Shown here: in pieces, positions 42,276 through 51,954 of the stretch
How positions within the stretch are numbered: the first letter of the stretch is position 1
How the letters are laid out: every line of letters begins with the position of its first letter
IMG/VR virus record: IMGVR_UViG_3300033121_001571
Length of the DNA: 64,000 nt
Strand: one strand, 5' to 3'
Source: a virus
Lineage: Duplodnaviria > Caudoviricetes
Translations under genes and position numbers: made by a program
Notes under the pieces: model-generated
The model's input: the letters and a program-made list of their open reading frames with translations, nothing else
Told to the model about the DNA's origin: nothing
The model's database searches: none

Positions 42276-42347
42276 TGATCCCAGTGGGATTTGAACCCTA
42301 CAACTCCTGTTTGAGGGACAGGTGACTTACCATTTGTCGATGGGACC
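42276..42347 (-). tRNA. tRNA-Glu(CTC)
   Basis: Glu-type body, loop CC-CTC-AA. Confidence 0.85.
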
Positions 42348-42353
42348 TCACTG

Positions 42354-43020
42354 TTACCAAGTACCTCGCAACCAGTCAGAAAGTCTCCAAGAGTTTCCTG
42401 TGCGATGGTCTTTTACTTGGTCTTCTTGTGTTCTGTAGGTTCTAATCTTGTCGCCTCGCATCCCAGAACCCACTTGATCTTTTCTGTCTTTTTCTTTTTC
42501 TTTTCTAGATCTCTCTAGTTCTTGTTCACTAAGTTTTGCAGCAAGGATCTTGTATGCTGTTGCTTTGTTTTGGTGCTGAGATCGTTCGTTATCAATTCTA
42601 ACTTGAAGTCCTGTTGGTTTGTGAGTCGCTATTACGCAACTCTCAGTTTTATTTCTGTTTTGACCACCAGGTCCCGAACCTCTCGCTGTTGTGATCTCTA
42701 CATCTCTATAATCGAGAGAAAAGTTTGTTTCATCTGAATCTAAGATAGCAACAGTGACTGTAGATGTATGAACTCTACCACGTTTTTCATTTGGTGGAAT
42801 CCTCTGCCAACGGTGTCCACCAGACTCATTTTTAAATATTTCTTTTACGTTTTTGCCGCTTATAAAAAGCTGTACATAACCCGGTCTTGAATCAACGACT
42901 TGACAGTCAAAGACACCTCTTGACAGAGATGTTTGTGTAAGCTTTCATCTGTTCAGACACAAGTGACTTTGCATCATCGCCGCCTTCAGCAGCTCTTATT
43001 TCTAAGATTATTGTTTCCAT
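42354..43020 (-). CDS. RF1-like class-I peptide chain release factor lacking domain 1, expressed by programmed +1 frameshift (~221 aa)
   Basis: Frame 0 METIILEIRAAEGGDDAK...KRCL*; +1 frame D...ESGGHRWQRIPPNEKRGRVHTS...GSGPGGQNRN...RSQHQNK...IRTY...DHR; GGAG RBS upstream. Confidence 0.9.
42906..42921 (-). promoter_or_regulatory. prfB-type +1 frameshift cassette AAGAGG-TGT-CTT-TGA-C
   Basis: Internal SD, 3-nt spacer, CTT-TGA-C; same architecture as E. coli prfB AGGGGG-TAT-CTT-TGA-C. Confidence 0.88.
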
Positions 43021-43062
43021 TAGTTTTCAACTCCAACTCTCAGAGTTATGTATTAAAAATTT

Positions 43063-43172
43063 GTAGTTGTGACTAGGTTCGAACTAGTAACTAGAGTCCT
43101 TTCAACTCTAACTCTACCTTGCTTTGTTACACAAGACGTCACGTGAACAAAGACTTGAGTTTACACAACTAC
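43063..43172 (-). ncRNA. tRNA-like RNA with a hairpin inserted in the D-loop
   Basis: Acceptor AGTTGTG/CACAACT; T-arm ACTAG-TTCGAAC-CTAGT; D-loop insert CTTTGTT...AACAAAG; anticodon loop TGAAAGG. Confidence 0.6.
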
Positions 43173-43174
43173 AG

Positions 43175-43255
43175 TGCCAGAAGAGGGACTTGAACCCTCA
43201 AGCCTTTCGGCGCCGGCTTCTAAGACCGGTGTGTATGCCGTTCCACCATTCTGGC
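43175..43255 (-). tRNA. tRNA-Leu(TAG)
   Basis: Loop CT-TAG-AA, variable arm. Confidence 0.92.
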
Positions 43256-43375
43256 GTTGAAAAAAAATTCAATTCATAGCTGGCATAGTGCAGATCTATG
43301 CTGTGACTACAGGTCGACTGGGGTTCGGTAACCAGAACACAAACTGACTAAGGGACAGCTTTCCCAACCGACTAG

Positions 43376-43458
43376 TGTCATCGGAGGGAGTCGAACCCTC
43401 ACGTTCTTTCGAACACATGCACCTCAAGCATGTGCGGCTGCCGTTACGCCACGATGAC
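43376..43458 (-). tRNA. tRNA-Leu(GAG)
   Basis: Loop TT-GAG-GT, variable arm. Confidence 0.92.
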
Positions 43459-43464
43459 ATTGAA

Positions 43465-43582
43465 AACGTAATTTTGGGACTCGAACCCATCTCCCCTCGC
43501 AACCGAGATCCGTCTCATGCACGAGTCGAACGTGCCAGTTACTACTCCGTCGAGGCGTAGCGCCAACCTACCCAATTACGTT
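43465..43582 (-). ncRNA. tRNA-like RNA with two T-arms (anticodon loop replaced by a structured domain)
   Basis: Closing stem AACGTAATT/AATTACGTT; T-arms GCACG-TTCGACT-CGTGC and TGGG-TTCGAGT-CCCA. Confidence 0.6.
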
Positions 43583-43584
43583 AG

Positions 43585-43652
43585 AGCCCAATCAAGGAAT
43601 TGAACCTTGTCTCTGCTTATGATCGCAGTGTGTTTCCGTACACTAGTCGGGC
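43585..43652 (-). tRNA. Atypical tRNA-CAT-like (8-nt anticodon loop GATCATAA)
   Basis: D and T arms present; 4-bp anticodon stem CTGC/GCAG. Confidence 0.45.
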
Positions 43653-43739
43653 ACTTGAATTTGTCTCTACTCACTGTTGAAGTGAGCTAACACGCCACGT
43701 TACTGGAACTTCTTCGTTTTGTAAGCGACGTAGAGAAAA

Positions 43740-44047
43740 CTGTTGATTGCTTGATCACTCGGCAGAGATCTCACTCTCTGCACCTCAACAACAAAGTCAC
43801 GTTGTTCTGTCACAGAACTCAGTCGCTAGCTAAGCGACATCAACATTCTGGTGAGAATTTACTCACATGCACCCAAGTTCTGAGTCCATTGTCGGTGCAC
43901 TAGTTACGATAGTGAATAAGGAACTGCCTGATCACTTCGTAACTGACATTACGCTTCCTCATTGTATTAGACCTGACCAGTTCCTGGCGTCAGTGCTTTA
44001 CTCCGAACAGAGTTAAGTTCAGCCACGAGTGATCAAGCAATCAACAG
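43740..44047 (-). ncRNA. Candidate ~308-nt structured ncRNA closed by a perfect 22-bp stem
   Basis: CTGTTGATTGCTTGATCACTCG (43740-61) is the exact reverse complement of 44026-47; many internal hairpins; no ORF; strand inferred from flanking tRNAs. Confidence 0.7.
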
Positions 44048-44121
44048 AGTCGAGAGTGAGAATCGAACTCACATGTTCACGGAGTTTGCAGTTCCGCCGC
44101 TGGCCTTTGGCGTTTCTCGAC
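44048..44121 (-). tRNA. tRNA-Cys(GCA)
   Basis: Loop CT-GCA-AA, U73. Confidence 0.88.
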
Positions 44122-44196
44122 AAAAATCGATAAAACACTTTTCATTCAGTGTCAATCGATTAGCGTGAATCTCAAATTTTAACTTGAGATTCACAG

Positions 44197-44268
44197 TCAG
44201 GAAGGAGGGACTCGAACCCCCGCCCACCGGTTTCCAGAACCGGGAGTCTGCCGCTGACGTACTTCCTG
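44197..44268 (-). tRNA. tRNA-Pro(TGG)-like, atypical loop TC-TGG-AA
   Basis: C1-G72/A73 Pro-type acceptor; stem CCGGT/ACCGG. Confidence 0.65.
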
Positions 44269-44273
44269 ATTGT

Positions 44274-44355
44274 AGTTAACGACAGGATTTAACCTGTATG
44301 CTTTTCAGCGTCCCCTCGCACTTGAAGAGATGTGTCTACTTTCCACCACGTTAAC
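44274..44355 (-). tRNA. Atypical Leu-type tRNA with enlarged anticodon loop (TTCAAGTGC)
   Basis: Leu-like D-loop and variable arm; irregular anticodon arm. Confidence 0.45.
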
Positions 44356-44358
44356 AAG

Positions 44359-44432
44359 CGCTCTCGGTAGGATTCGAACCTACGACCTCACCGTTCGAAG
44401 CGGTGCACTCTATTCCACTAAGTTACGAGAGC
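44359..44432 (-). tRNA. tRNA-Arg(TCG)
   Basis: Loop CT-TCG-AA. Confidence 0.92.
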
Positions 44433-44437
44433 AATTG

Positions 44438-44508
44438 TAACCGCAGTTAGACTCGAACTAACACTTTTACCGTGTCGAGGTAATGTTCTACCTTTGAACT
44501 ATGCAGTC
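44438..44508 (-). tRNA. tRNA-Val(GAC)
   Basis: Loop TC-GAC-AC. Confidence 0.82.
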
Positions 44509-44510
44509 AT

Positions 44511-44585
44511 TGGTGGGAGTGCTTGGAGTTGAACCAAGCTACTCGAGCTTATAAGGCTCGATGGGTCGACCGGTCCCACACTCCC
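44511..44585 (-). tRNA. tRNA-Ile(TAT)
   Basis: Loop CT-TAT-AA, A73, CCA. Confidence 0.85.
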
Positions 44586-44593
44586 AAACTAAC

Positions 44594-44669
44594 TGGTGAC
44601 CTTGACGGGATTCGAACCCGTGTAAAGACATTGAAAGCGTCTTGTCCTGGACCGCTAGACGACAAGGCC
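44594..44669 (-). tRNA. tRNA-Glu(TTC)
   Basis: Loop CT-TTC-AA, CCA. Confidence 0.92.
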
Positions 44670-44677
44670 AAACTAAC

Positions 44678-44754
44678 TGGTGCCACAGGTGAGATTCGAA
44701 CTCACAACAAATCGTTTTTGAGACGATCACCTCTGCCGATTGGGTCACTGTGGC
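44678..44754 (-). tRNA. tRNA-Leu(CAA), no long variable arm
   Basis: Loop CT-CAA-AA, CCA. Confidence 0.85.
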
Positions 44755-44757
44755 AAT

Positions 44758-44833
44758 TGGAGCTAGCGAAGGGAGTCGAACCCTCAACCTACTGCTTACA
44801 AGGCAGGTGCTCTGCCGGTTGAGCTACGCTAGC
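44758..44833 (-). tRNA. tRNA-Thr(TGT)
   Basis: Loop CT-TGT-AA, CCA. Confidence 0.92.
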
Positions 44834-44943
44834 AAACCCATCTCTTGTTGAAAACCAACATCTCCCTTTTGGTGTGTGAGGGTGTTTTTTCTTAAACTAA
44901 AGAGATGGTAAGTAAAGCAAAGACACACGTCTTTTACGTTACT

Positions 44944-45029
44944 TGGTAGCCCTGGTCGGACTTGAACCGACACGTCCTTACGAACAGAGGATTTTAAATC
45001 CTCGGCGTCTGCCTTTCCGCCACAGGGCC
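44944..45029 (-). tRNA. tRNA-Leu(TAA)
   Basis: Loop TT-TAA-AA, variable arm, CCA. Confidence 0.92.
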
Positions 45030-45038
45030 ATGTATCAG

Positions 45039-45111
45039 AGCTACACGTGAGAGTCGAACTCACCGCACCTTGCTTACCATGCAAGGATTTCCCCACGGAA
45101 ATCTGTGTAGC
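45039..45111 (-). tRNA. tRNA-Thr(GGT)
   Basis: Loop AT-GGT-AA. Confidence 0.85.
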
Positions 45112-45116
45112 ATTTG

Positions 45117-45190
45117 AGCTAACAGCGAGATTCGAACTCGCTCAATCTCACTTACGAAATGAGTACTCTGTCCTTACGAGCATTGTTAGC
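45117..45190 (-). tRNA. tRNA-Thr(CGT)
   Basis: Loop TT-CGT-AA. Confidence 0.85.
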
Positions 45191-45195
45191 ACTTG

Positions 45196-45270
45196 GGTGA
45201 AGATCGGGAATCGAACCCTGAACCGACTGGGTCACAACCAGTCATGCAGAACCACTACAACATCTCCACC
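45196..45270 (-). tRNA. tRNA-His(GTG)
   Basis: Loop TT-GTG-AC, G-1/C73. Confidence 0.88.
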
Positions 45271-45317
45271 ATGTTAGAAGACTATAACACCCTTAGAACC
45301 GTGTTACACTCCGCCGG

Positions 45318-45389
45318 CGCCCAAGAAGAGATTCGAACTCTTGCTTTTGGTTTCGTAGACCAATGTTCTATCCACTAAACTACAAGGGC
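45318..45389 (-). tRNA. tRNA-Arg(ACG)
   Basis: Loop CT-ACG-AA. Confidence 0.9.
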
Positions 45390-45394
45390 ATTAG

Positions 45395-45467
45395 TGTTGG
45401 AAGTCAGAATCGAACTGACCTATTCTGGGCTTCAACCAGACGCTTTCACCAGTACAGCTTTTCCAAC
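45395..45467 (-). tRNA. tRNA-Phe(GAA)
   Basis: Loop TT-GAA-GC. Confidence 0.85.
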
Positions 45468-45535
45468 ATTTCAGAGTCTCTCCTCTGTGTCACGTTTTGA
45501 AGCCAACGTTGTGCCCAGCGTAAAGCTGGCCTTCG

Positions 45536-45608
45536 TCGGCCCGGCAGGATTCGAACCTGCGACATCTGCTTTGTAGGAGCAGCGTTACTACCGCTGAACT
45601 ACGGGCCG
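45536..45608 (-). tRNA. tRNA-Val(TAC)
   Basis: Loop CC-TAC-AA. Confidence 0.85.
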
Positions 45609-45631
45609 TGAAGACACAAATTTTCAAAGAC

Positions 45632-45708
45632 TGGTCTGGGTGGCAGGATTTGAACCTGCGGCCCCGAGCTCCCAAGGCTCGTGCGCTACCAGACTACGCT
45701 ACACCCAG
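45632..45708 (-). tRNA. tRNA-Pro(TGG)
   Basis: Loop CT-TGG-GA, CCA. Confidence 0.92.
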
Positions 45709-45888
45709 TCAACTTACTTTTTTCTTTTTCTGACTGTCTCTGTCAGAGAGCCGATTTCAAACTCTTTTGAGTCACGGCTTGTTATGTTCGGTTGGAAGAA
45801 ACAGCTCACTAGGGACTAAAAATCCCGTTAGAACTGTACGTGTTATTTCCAACATCAACATCTGAAGAACCGAAGTGCTTGTAATGAT

Positions 45889-45916
45889 AAGATATACCAC
45901 ACAGAGCTTTTGTGCA
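45889..45916 (-). promoter_or_regulatory. Putative promoter of tRNA array 1 (TGCACA-N16-TATCTT)
   Basis: Matches a motif recurring at about 10 sites in the window. Confidence 0.6.
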
Positions 45917-45949
45917 CTCAGAGTGTGCACTTTTTCACTTTTTTATTTT

Positions 45950-46720
45950 TTATGACTTTGGTTGTCTTGAAACGTTCAAAACACCCTCTGAAGAAATTGC
46001 GTGACAAAATCTTTCGTCTCGAAGTAAATCGAGAATATCCATTCTGTTGTTGTCAAGTAAACACTCTCTAGCAACTAACCTAATCCCGTGTGAATAGTCT
46101 GCATAAGTTGATTCGTGACCCAAGTACAAAGGTTGTATATTTTTTCCTGTAGATCTGTGCCACCCATATATTGCAACCTGATCTGGGTGTTTTGATAACA
46201 GATTGGTCAGTACAACATCTTTTTTGTGTCCAACTATAAGAGACTTAGGATCAAAACCTAAATTTTTGATCTGGTTGTTTATCCTAGAATTGTGTTCTTT
46301 GTAACGATATGAACTCATCATAGACGCGTCGTAAGGTGCTCCCCACGGCATTGGTTCTAATTTTTGATCCGTCGCGCGCCAGATCAGTGATACGATCGAA
46401 CTTGTGGGTAGCGTGCAATTATATGCATCCATCACTTGTTGTGCTGATAGTGGAGACATTGGTATTCTTACGTAATCATCATCAGTACCGATACAAAGAT
46501 AATCTTTTGCTACACTTAAAGTCAACTTCGAAGCTTCTTTAGAGTCTTTTGGCAAAAAGAACAACGATATGTCTTCTAATTCTTTTAGAAATTCAGGAAC
46601 ACACCCGTCTAACAGGTGTTCTACTATAAGTTTTTCTCTTATATTTCTTTTCACAGACCAAATTTTGTTCATAAATTCAGTGCCAGTGACAACCTTTTTT
46701 GTCTTGATCTCAAGTTTCAT
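45950..46720 (-). CDS. Conserved-looking hypothetical protein (possible enzyme)
   Basis: DYLCIGTDDDYVRIPM, GHKKDVV, IYGWH, YADYSHGIR. Confidence 0.65.
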   Translation of the reverse strand: MKLEIKTKKVVTGTEFMNKIWSVKRNIREKLIVEHLLDGCVPEFLKELEDISLFFLPKDSKEASKLTLSVAKDYLCIGTDDDYVRIPMSPLSAQQVMDAYNCTLPTSSIVSLIWRATDQKLEPMPWGAPYDASMMSSYRYKEHNSRINNQIKNLGFDPKSLIVGHKKDVVLTNLLSKHPDQVAIYGWHRSTGKNIQPLYLGHESTYADYSHGIRLVARECLLDNNRMDILDLLRDERFCHAISSEGVLNVSRQPKS

Positions 46721-50089: not shown

Positions 50090-51751
50090 TCAGCGCCAAG
50101 CGCCCTTGAGGATCTTGTTTTTGTCAACGCAGATCTGCAACTCAGATGATTCGAAGTTCAACTTGCATCCACTTCCCAGTACCCAACCACGTCGACCACG
50201 GCATGCACCGGGTGCAGGAGCGATACCGTCAGTCATGATCAATAAACCGTCCCACATACCACGGTTAACCGGATCATTAAAGACATTAGTTGGAGCATCG
50301 AAGTCCGTACCTCCCATCTTGTCTCTACGAGGGTTCAACTTCTGCCCTCGCTTCCACTCGTAGACGTCTTTAACGTCCGCGGCACAGTCAAATGGCAGGA
50401 TCGAGATGTTGACTTTCTTAGTCAACGTTGCCAGCTCAGCAAAGAACTGAACGAGCATCTCATCACCAACCGATCCACTCTGATCAATGGCAATCAACAG
50501 CTTTGCGACTCTCGCTCTCTTCATCCCGGGATGAATGTAGGGGAATCGTCTGTTGATTCGTTTGATCGAAGTAGTGCGACCAGCGGGATTCAAGTTCCCA
50601 ACGAACTGTCGCAAGACCATTCGCCAGTCAATCTGATTGCTGACGCTCCTGCGGATTTCATCACGGACAGACGCTGGGATGCTTCCCCATCCGTCAGAAC
50701 TCTGATCTGCCGCAGCGACCGCTGCAGCGACGATCGAGTTGATCTTTGCTTCGATTGCATCACGTTTCTCATCGGGAATGTTGTCCCACACGTCGTGGTT
50801 ATCGAGCGTCTCGATACCGACGTCTTTCAGACCGTAAGGATCGTCGCCAGTGTGACCCTCGTCACAGTCTTCTTCGTGATCACACGGATTTCCTTGCCCG
50901 TGAGTGTGATTGGGATCGTTCTCGTCTCCATTTTCACCCTCACCGTCCGAGCCGTTGTCAGACGGGTTTTCGCCAGGCGAAGAGCCCTTCTCGCCCTTAC
51001 CCTTCTGACCCTTGTCTTTCTGACCCTCGGGCTTGTCGCTCGGATCGTTACCGTTGTCGCCTTGAGTGCCGTCTTTTCCGTCACTCTGAGAGTTCGACGG
51101 ATCACTTTCACTCTGGCTCTGACTTCCCGAGCCAGAACTCTTCTGAGTGATCTTCCCGGGAGGACCAGACATGGGATTGCCACACTTCGAACAGAACTCC
51201 TCCTTCTGCCAGAAGCCGAGAATACTACCGTAGTAGTACTCCGATGCTTCGAGCGTGGGCATCTTTTCAATGTGTTTCGCGAACTTCGTTGCTCCGTTCT
51301 CAGTCTTGGTAGCTTTCCGATCCTTGGGAGGAGTGGGAAGCTTTCCAGGGACAAGAACACAAGAGGGCAGGTGGTTCTTCTCGTTAGAAGTAGCGTTCTT
51401 GTCGAGAATAACGCTGTTGATAGCCAAGTCAGTACTGATGTTCCACGCGACGGGCGGGAACTTTCTACGAGTAGTGAGATGACCGAAAATAGCGTGGTAA
51501 AACTCGTGCTTCACCACACCCACAAGCTCGTTGTCTGACAGACCATCGAGAAACTTGGGATTGTAGTACATGACGAGTTCGTCATCACTCGATTCAAACG
51601 TGATAGCTGCGGTTGGAATGTCGTCTGTGGCAATCTTTCGCGTTCTACGCGAAATCTCAGCCCAGAATGGAGTCTGGAAAATTTCCGACTTGATGATCTT
51701 TCGATCGAGGACCTCTGGGTCCGAGTCGGTTGGTCTAAAGGTTCTTGCCAT
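50090..51751 (-). CDS. Metallopeptidase (HExxH) + vWA protein (DUF2201-like)
   Basis: HEFYH; acidic Gly/Ser linker; MIDAS DQSGS; GGTDF; MTDG. Confidence 0.88.
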   Translation of the reverse strand: MARTFRPTDSDPEVLDRKIIKSEIFQTPFWAEISRRTRKIATDDIPTAAITFESSDDELVMYYNPKFLDGLSDNELVGVVKHEFYHAIFGHLTTRRKFPPVAWNISTDLAINSVILDKNATSNEKNHLPSCVLVPGKLPTPPKDRKATKTENGATKFAKHIEKMPTLEASEYYYGSILGFWQKEEFCSKCGNPMSGPPGKITQKSSGSGSQSQSESDPSNSQSDGKDGTQGDNGNDPSDKPEGQKDKGQKGKGEKGSSPGENPSDNGSDGEGENGDENDPNHTHGQGNPCDHEEDCDEGHTGDDPYGLKDVGIETLDNHDVWDNIPDEKRDAIEAKINSIVAAAVAAADQSSDGWGSIPASVRDEIRRSVSNQIDWRMVLRQFVGNLNPAGRTTSIKRINRRFPYIHPGMKRARVAKLLIAIDQSGSVGDEMLVQFFAELATLTKKVNISILPFDCAADVKDVYEWKRGQKLNPRRDKMGGTDFDAPTNVFNDPVNRGMWDGLLIMTDGIAPAPGACRGRRGWVLGSGCKLNFESSELQICVDKNKILKGAWR

Positions 51752-51844: not shown

Positions 51845-51954
51845 ACTGCTTCAGCCCACCGTGGGCCCACGGTGGGCTTTGTAACGCACTATAACAGTTA
51901 CCCCTTACTAGAAATAAAAAAGCCCACCGTGGGCCCACGGTGGGCTGAAGCAGT
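51845..51954. repeat. 36-bp inverted repeat, each arm holding a perfect 26-bp palindrome
   Basis: AGCCCACCGTGGGCCCACGGTGGGCT at 51853-78 and 51921-46. Confidence 0.92.

Follow-up and report, generated by a model that had tools for sequence, protein, structure and literature searches.

The tRNA array of a huge-phage DNA stretch from metagenomes (64,000 nt; referred to as the window) raises the question of what is encoded by a 308-nt element on the minus strand (43740..44047) that is closed by an exact 22-nt inverted repeat. A preliminary description, made from the sequence alone, had interpreted it as a possibly new large non-coding RNA (ncRNA) released by tRNA processing and had named a MITE-like element as the alternative. 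According to the analyses presented here, it is highly probable that the element is the gene of a new family of structured ncRNAs of about 310 nt, which belongs to one clade of huge tailed phages; the RNA is rather likely excised from a tRNA precursor. The window has a G + C content of about 35% outside its RNA genes and contains 37 tRNA genes predicted by ARAGORN, all of which are located on the minus strand in two blocks (39.7–45.7 kb and 55.2–56.4 kb). It also encodes a baseplate-wedge homolog, a helicase, a DUF2201 metallopeptidase, a NADAR protein, and a short RF1-like protein. A 256-aa protein whose gene adjoins the array was used as marker. The family of this protein has more than 2,800 members, many of them on contigs of 100–440 kb that include IMG/VR viral records (one of these complete with terminal repeats), and the window is therefore part of a huge tailed phage known from metagenomes only. 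Near-identical DNA was present in river, wastewater, and sludge runs of several studies.

The arms of the inverted repeat are 100% complementary, exactly as first described, and enclose 264 nt; the arm sequence is unique in the 64 kb even with three mismatches allowed, and no match to it is expected by chance. ARAGORN placed the preceding tRNA-Cys(gca) at 44121..44047 on the minus strand. When read by eye, the 3′ strand of its acceptor stem ends at 44049 and is followed by the discriminator U44048 (...UCUCGAC-U on the minus strand, CCA not encoded) and then by C44047, the first base of the closing stem, which thus directly adjoins the discriminator as had been proposed. Compared to shuffled sequences, the element folds with z-scores of −7.5 on the minus strand and −8.3 on the plus strand. 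A conserved ORF was not found in it, since the longest stop-free stretch, which measures 53 aa in the window, differs in length among the homologs (53–104 aa). A coding sequence was rejected as explanation.

The search for homologs started from the loci of the closest relatives of the marker protein, which are about 50% identical to the protein of the window. A first homolog was detected by nhmmer on a 157-kb Logan contig (L007:11338-11651; E = 2e-28). A covariance model built from the window and L007 sequences (R1) recovered the element in L027/L028 and L025 among 45 IMG/VR loci, and a pattern of two invariant blocks led to L068 and L071. The family hence comprises six distinct members of 308–315 nt, that is, the window and five homologs of 313–315 nt in related huge-phage contigs, and the full-length matches obtained with nhmmer and covariance models (L007, L027/L028, L025, L068, and L071) score 229–364 bits. 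The window itself scores 351 bits with R1 and 308 bits with the model of all six sequences (R2). The traits that define the family are all found in the window, namely a length of about 310 nt, a closing helix (P1) of 22–23 bp, a 5′ end at a tRNA discriminator, and a covarying loop–loop helix. The blocks GUGGCUGAA, GGAAGCGUAA, GUGCACCGAC, and UAGCUA are invariant and define the family as well.

The distribution of the element is narrow. The marker proteins of L007, L025, and L027 are 47–53% identical to that of the window, and the four members for which the marker gene was recovered fall into one well-supported clade of 17 rows in the marker tree, inside which the occurrence of the element is patchy. 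It is absent from a complete 435-kb relative. Blastn against GenBank phages yielded no match for the element or for a 6-kb neighboring stretch, and no match to the exact arm or to a first gapped pattern was obtained in IMG/VR. A scan of JGI metagenomes with the 256-aa marker retrieved relatives of about 50% identity only, none of which carries the element. Two more IMG/VR scans, a metagenome scan, and a genome scan revealed no further members, and neither did R2 when applied to the loci of 44 relatives and to six further loci with an RF1-like gene. Eight pattern matches in bacterial genomes were rejected as chance matches, because none was confirmed by R1 and no Rfam family was found at these sites; moreover, eight matches lie within a rough estimate of what chance would give for 20 specified bases and a gap of 31 possible values. 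L082, which was found in a later IMG/VR scan, was likewise a chance match. Since only six members are known, with a patchy occurrence in one phage clade and close relatives that do without it, the element is dispensable or replaceable.

Covariation was analyzed in an alignment of all six sequences, which contains 532 pair cells including those of the loop–loop helix. Standard pairs occupy 97.2% of these cells, and both sides have changed in 48 of the 89 pairs, a strong signal that none of 500 shuffles reached. Controls in which the pairing partners were slid by 1–3 columns gave only 2–14 double-change pairs and 33–45% pairing. An alignment of four sequences showed the same tendency (98.8% of cells paired; double changes in 35 of 84 pairs versus at most 10 in slid controls). 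RNAalifold predicted 93 pairs, 42 of them compensatory, from the six sequences, and 84 pairs from a two-sequence MAFFT alignment, with 22 double-changed pairs and none broken except at gaps. One caveat is that the six-sequence alignment was fitted to the covariance model, which favors the pairing of that model. However, the same compensatory changes are visible by eye in an independent MAFFT alignment, and the 22 double changes had already been obtained with the two-sequence MAFFT alignment. The aligned sequences show a fold that is maintained by compensatory evolution.

In the consensus fold, a closing helix of 22–23 bp leads into a five-way junction; an inner domain with several hairpins and a loop–loop pairing of 8 bp complete the structure (Table 1). 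From the 5′ end, P1 (22 bp in the window) is followed by the invariant junction GUGGCUGAA, the small hairpin Ha, hairpin H2, the inner domain, a junction containing an invariant AGGU, and the last hairpin, which stacks directly on P1. All six members have a P1 of 22–23 bp, with double changes in 12 of 22 pairs and one paired 1-nt insertion. The inner domain is closed by a pair of helices (96–100% paired; four double-change pairs), is bordered by GGAAGCGUAA and UGACnGAAnnACG, two invariant strands, and encloses four hairpins. Double changes affect five of six pairs in the helix CAGAAU/GUUCUG and four of five pairs in the hairpin GUCGC/GCGAC within it. Long single-stranded blocks are also invariant across the six members. 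In the last hairpin the loop core GUGA is invariant, and three of the six members have GUGAGA. The preliminary description had named six helices (CUGAC/GUCAG, AGUUACGA/UCGUAACU, UGCACC/GGUGCA, GUGAG/CUCAC, GUCGCU/AGCGAC, and GCAGAGA/UCUCUGC), all of which recur in the consensus. Five of them covary, whereas UGCACC/GGUGCA is invariant and thus neither supported nor refuted by the data: all seven pairs of the extended helix GUGCACC/GGUGCAU are identical in the six sequences, so that its pairing is uninformative. The block as a whole nevertheless shows strong purifying selection.

Table 1. Positions of the RNA features discussed in the text. Coordinates refer to the window unless a relative is named.
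Feature	Position	Strand	Basis or remark
Upstream tRNA-Cys(gca), CCA not encoded	44047..44121	−	A cut at its 3′ end would make the 5′ end of the element
Whole structured RNA gene (~308 nt)	43740..44047	− (tRNA strand)	Model R1 and six-sequence covariation
Closing helix P1, 5′ strand (22 bp)	44026..44047	−	Begins with the first base after discriminator U44048
Invariant junction GUGGCUGAA between P1 and Ha	44017-44025	−	
Small variable hairpin Ha (UCUG/GGAG in the window)	44001..44011	−	RNAalifold, six sequences; one double change
Hairpin H2 (CUGAC/GUCAG)	43969..43997	−	7 pairs, 100% paired
Inner domain, helices AUGAGG..GCGU / ACGU..UUGU and UGUC/GACA	43791..43962	−	Flanked by GGAAGCGUAA and UGACnGAAnnACG
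Hairpin H5 (AGUUACGA/UCGUAACU), variable stem, conserved 17-nt loop	43902..43944	−	Double changes in 9 of 10 pairs
CAGUUCCU in the H5 loop	43919..43926	−	Pairs with AGGAACUG of the H2 loop, 8 bp
Hairpin GUGCACC/GGUGCAU, conserved loop ..UCAGAnCUn	43867..43900	−	Most conserved block
Hairpin GUGAG/CUCAC, loop UAAAUU	43851..43866	−	Double changes in 4 of 5 pairs
Helix CAGAAU/GUUCUG around hairpin GUCGC/GCGAC, invariant loop UAGCUA	43813..43850	−	Covariation
Hairpin GCAGAG/CUCUGC, adjoins the P1 3′ strand	43762..43781	−	Double changes in 5 of 6 pairs
Closing helix P1, 3′ strand	43740..43761	−	Inverted repeat and covariation
Putative downstream tRNA-like fold (acceptor-like UCUCU/AGAGA and T-arm-like hairpin)	43653..43736	−	3–4 nt after the element
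RNase P RNA of relatives	L007:14818-15177	+	
RNase P RNA of relatives	L068:7367-7724	+	
RNase P RNA of relatives	L071:6330-6684	−	
RNase P RNA of relatives	L014:16568-16927	+	

The contact beyond the nested helices differs from the one first suggested. The 11-nt loop of H2 contains AGGAACUG (43978-43985), which pairs over 8 bp with CAGUUCCU in the loop of H5, either as kissing loops or as a pseudoknot. Both sides have changed in four of these eight pairs, the variants being GGAGAUUG/CAAUCUCC in L068 and GGAAACUG/CAGUUUCC in L071. The pseudoknot GGACUCAG/CUGAGUUC that had been considered possible was not supported: its invariant core comprises UCAG/CUGA only, its 5′ strand is affected by indels in both L007 and a natural variant of the window sequence, and the bases flanking its 3′ strand belong to covarying nested helices.

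The position of the element relative to tRNA genes is conserved too. In all six members it lies on the tRNA strand, and its first base directly follows the discriminator of a tRNA, which is tRNA-Cys in the window, tRNA-Val(tac) in one homolog, tRNA-Val(cac) in two, and tRNA-Pro(ggg) in two. The 5′ junction reads A-CC... in five members and U-CU... in the window (the hyphen marks the boundary). Five of the six also have a tRNA or tRNA-like fold that starts 2–6 nt beyond the element. In L025 and L071 this is a tRNA-Pro(cgg) at a distance of 3 nt, L007 has a degenerate copy of it about 6 nt downstream, and in L027 a long tRNA-like fold starts after 4 nt; nothing tRNA-like was recognized downstream of the element in L068. 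The corresponding structure of the window (z = −3.1 for its minimum free energy fold) was called neither by ARAGORN nor by the Rfam tRNA model (E ≤ 10), and its designation as tRNA-like is our own, putative reading of that fold. Also the region 43459-43583 on the minus strand folds in a tRNA-like manner, with an acceptor-like stem and a T-arm-like hairpin, and was likewise not called by ARAGORN or the Rfam tRNA model (E ≤ 10). Relatives lacking the element encode a full CCA on the corresponding tRNA-Val (L018:10030-10039 and L024:12070-12078), in contrast to the tRNA-Val in front of the element, which ends in ...GA-CC-G (L007:11331-11341). At the site that is occupied by the element in L007, L024 has tRNA-Val-CCA, 20 nt, and tRNA-Pro(cgg), and L018 has 142 nt of unrelated sequence. 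Neither strand of 42300-46000 contains a promoter-like site.

Precursor tRNAs without an encoded CCA are cleaved by RNase Z behind the discriminator, and RNase P produces the 5′ ends of tRNAs. Judging from the junctions, it is rather likely that the element is co-transcribed within a polycistronic tRNA precursor and excised from it by tRNA-processing enzymes. In such a pathway, the 5′ end of the element would arise when an RNase Z-type enzyme cleaves the upstream CCA-less tRNA behind its discriminator, and the 3′ end of the element when RNase P cleaves at the 5′ boundary of the tRNA or tRNA-like structure 2–6 nt downstream. Both cuts together would release exactly the modeled RNA plus a tail of 2–6 nt, and the long terminal helix would protect both ends so that the RNA could accumulate. 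The window encodes a tRNA-nucleotidyltransferase-like protein of the CCA-adding type, and RNase P RNA is encoded in the arrays of relatives. This tRNA-punctuated release would resemble other systems in which RNase P and RNase Z set the ends of a non-tRNA RNA at adjoining tRNAs or tRNA-like structures, as is the case for MALAT1/mascRNA and for mitochondrial transcripts. It differs from them in that the presumed cuts lie in a phage tRNA array and the product is a closed multi-helix RNA.

In each of three metatranscriptomic runs from three studies, one contig of 272–319 nt matched the element with 100% identity (43746-44017, 43742-44029, and 43789-44107), and the last of these contigs (X19) joins the element to tRNA-Cys. 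The ends at 43742 and 43746 are near the predicted 3′ end, which the DNA contig continues past, and can be regarded as a weak hint of the 3′ end of the RNA. The ends at 44017 and 44029 fall 18–30 nt short of the predicted 5′ end and are not accounted for by the release model. The flanks of the element are almost uncovered in the three runs, and this missing cover was not counted as evidence. A back-joint as expected of a circular RNA was not seen in the RNA contigs. These contigs are a hint that the RNA accumulates, with the reservation that they give no information on strand, ends, or level and that RNA libraries can contain DNA.

The same junctions would be compatible with a purely cis-acting structured spacer, which would serve folding, processing order, stability, or termination of the precursor and have no function after release. 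The adjoining tRNA that is always found on the 5′ side and usually on the 3′ side as well, the UUUU that follows the closing stem in the window, and the 20-nt and unrelated 142-nt spacers of the close relatives L024 and L018 could all be explained in this way. However, an RNA of about 310 nt in which some 90 pairs are conserved, a loop–loop contact covaries, and long single-stranded blocks are invariant far exceeds the needs of a spacer or terminator, and the RNA-library contigs, which represent the element alone, argue weakly in the same direction. The U-tract, moreover, is not conserved, as the 3′ flanks of the homologs (UUCCAC, CUUUGU, UAUCAG, CUUCGG, and UGAUGC) are not U-rich. Given that UUUU occurs in the window only and that a terminator scan gave no call here, an intrinsic terminator was rejected, and the spacer interpretation as a whole appears unlikely to us.

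The next question was whether the ncRNA gene proposed here represents a known family. No Rfam 15 family matched at the gathering score, and relaxed thresholds (E ≤ 10 for 43400-44400; E ≤ 1 for the homolog loci L007, L027, and L068) gave no match either. The specific RNase P models (RF00010, RF00011, RF00373, and others) gave no match at E ≤ 10. The preliminary description had likewise recognized no RNase P, tmRNA, SRP, or intron motifs. We regard it as very unlikely that the element is a highly diverged copy of RNase P RNA, tmRNA, SRP RNA, or 6S RNA. A similar size and paired ends are shared with such RNAs, and the phage clade carries translation-related genes and RNAs. By eye, GGAA-GCGU and ACAGAAcA-ACGC also recall the CR-I and CR-V motifs of RNase P RNA, and GGUCAGGUCCG recalls 4.5S RNA; these look-alikes received no support from any model. 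Against this stand the missing matches to any of these Rfam families at the E values given above, the lack of an ARAGORN tmRNA call and of a conserved tag ORF, and the ends, which form a 22-bp helix. Type-A RNase P RNA (RF00010) is similar to the element in size, in its paired ends, in its occurrence in tRNA arrays of the same clade, and in the short motifs seen by eye. It differs in that the model is not matched and that the central GCGU/ACGy helix is nested here, whereas the corresponding P4 of RNase P RNA is a pseudoknot. Since L007, L068, and L071 hold a separate canonical full-length type-A RNase P RNA besides the element, the latter is not RNase P RNA. The RNase P RNAs in the tRNA arrays of relatives are an observation in their own right (241–277 bits; model positions 1–367; Table 1). 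None was found in the 64 kb of the window, and a full-text literature search retrieved no report of such RNAs in huge or jumbo phages.

Which strand carries the structured RNA can be read from the pairs themselves. On the minus strand 47 pair cells are G·U and would have to be read as A·C on the plus strand, and R1 assigns 351 bits to the minus strand versus 26 bits to the plus strand. The near-identical natural variant, contained in a 6.4-kb DNA contig (run X14), has five differences within the element. Two of these are stem changes (43767 and 44029, both G>A) that convert G-C into G·U on the minus strand only, and the remaining three sit in one loop. A MITE-like or otherwise mobile DNA element, whose 22-bp repeats would be transposase sites and whose internal structure would be incidental, would fit the perfect terminal inverted repeats in the window, the occurrence as a discrete presence/absence module (the element of L007 corresponds to 20 nt in L024), and the different preceding tRNAs in different phages, but this alternative is rejected as hardly credible because the G·U pairs, which preserve the pairing of the no longer exactly repeated arms of the homologs, fit the tRNA strand only, because the window and a 309-kb record (91% complete) contain one copy each, and because no target-site duplications or flanking direct repeats were found at the junctions, to which are added the covariation of nine internal helices and of the loop–loop contact and the lack of a transposase gene nearby.

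The proposal that this phage tRNA array encodes a new large structured ncRNA has thus survived comparison with Rfam, analysis of covariation, and the search for dispersed copies. The ncRNA is best read as being of the same kind as GOLLD and ROOL, unrelated to either of them, and hence as a new class within a known kind. Covariance models of ROOL (RF03087) and GOLLD (RF01998) were not matched at the gathering score or at relaxed E values. Like these large structured ncRNAs of phages and prophages, which are of unknown function, often lie near tRNA islands, and were found by covariation, it resides in tRNA arrays (of six phage contigs), a resemblance of kind and not of family. ROOL and GOLLD have lengths of about 580 nt and more than 800 nt, respectively, whereas the RNA of the window measures about 310 nt, possesses a 22-bp terminal helix, adjoins tRNAs on both sides, and is found in six huge-phage contigs only. 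Another comparison is offered by the stable RNAs of the T4 tRNA cluster (species 1 and 2, rnaC/rnaD), which have no known function, are co-transcribed with the tRNAs, and are matured by host tRNA-processing enzymes. They also are stable RNAs inside a phage tRNA cluster, but at about 120–140 nt are much shorter, and we know of no resemblance to the element in sequence or fold.

ROOL and GOLLD form RNA-only cages in which kissing loops are key contacts (PMC12286853). In ROOL, a kissing loop that covariation had initially suggested to be a tertiary contact proved to be quaternary (PMC12286853). The contact between AGGAACUG and CAGUUCCU could be of either type, as covariation cannot separate intramolecular from intermolecular pairing. 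Based on the likeness to ROOL and GOLLD, we rate as the most likely mode of action, if only tentatively, that the RNA may function in trans in the course of infection, as a self-contained RNA or RNA–protein particle of the GOLLD/ROOL kind, in which case it would probably participate in the takeover of tRNA and translation functions by the phage. Somewhat more doubtful is a new class of autonomous phage RNA machine, which would be either a homo-oligomeric RNA-only assembly held together by the loop–loop pairing or a ribozyme or RNA decoy directed at the tRNA/translation apparatus, with tRNA-punctuated excision as its dedicated route of release.

Large intricate RNAs without known function are rare in bacteria and phages, and those found so far (GOLLD, ROOL, OLE, and raiA) have repeatedly led to new structural biology. 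The family described here is a compact, well-defined class with unusually clean covariation for only six sequences, and its length of about 310 nt is small enough for chemical probing, cryo-EM, and mutational work. Its biogenesis by excision between tRNAs and the tertiary or quaternary nature of the loop–loop contact are both open to experimental testing. It also illustrates that the tRNA arrays of huge phages accommodate further RNA genes, among them the full RNase P RNA of relatives.

Several neighboring features deserve mention. The RF1-like release-factor gene of the window (42354-43020, minus strand) encodes PCRF and RF-1 domains and a GGQ motif, is missing domain 1, and contains an in-frame TGA within CTT TGA C, which corresponds to the classical prfB +1 frameshift site. 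Its homologs have about 195 aa, comprise more than 2,500 proteins, and are very common in the phage group. An RF1-like gene is located near all six RNA-bearing loci versus one of 11 RNA-free loci. As a partner of the RNA it was nevertheless dropped, because its family has more than 2,500 members and the gene occurs without the RNA in L018, L086, and L089.

Outside the element, the X14 variant carries 410 other letters in place of 51 bases at 44435-44485 (the spacer between tRNA-Arg(tcg) and tRNA-Val(gac) and most of tRNA-Val(gac)), which could be an intron-like or mobile insertion. ARAGORN further reported abnormal anticodon loops, namely an “anticodon (ca)” at 43584-43652 (minus strand) in the window and at L027:12972-13042, and a four-base “gttc” anticodon at L025:11252-11347, so that oddities of the anticodon loop recur in separate phages. 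Finally, a perfect inverted repeat (arms of 36 bp; 38-bp spacer) is located at 51845-51954, just upstream of the DUF2201 metallopeptidase gene (minus strand, start at 51751), and each of its arms is palindromic and rich in G + C.
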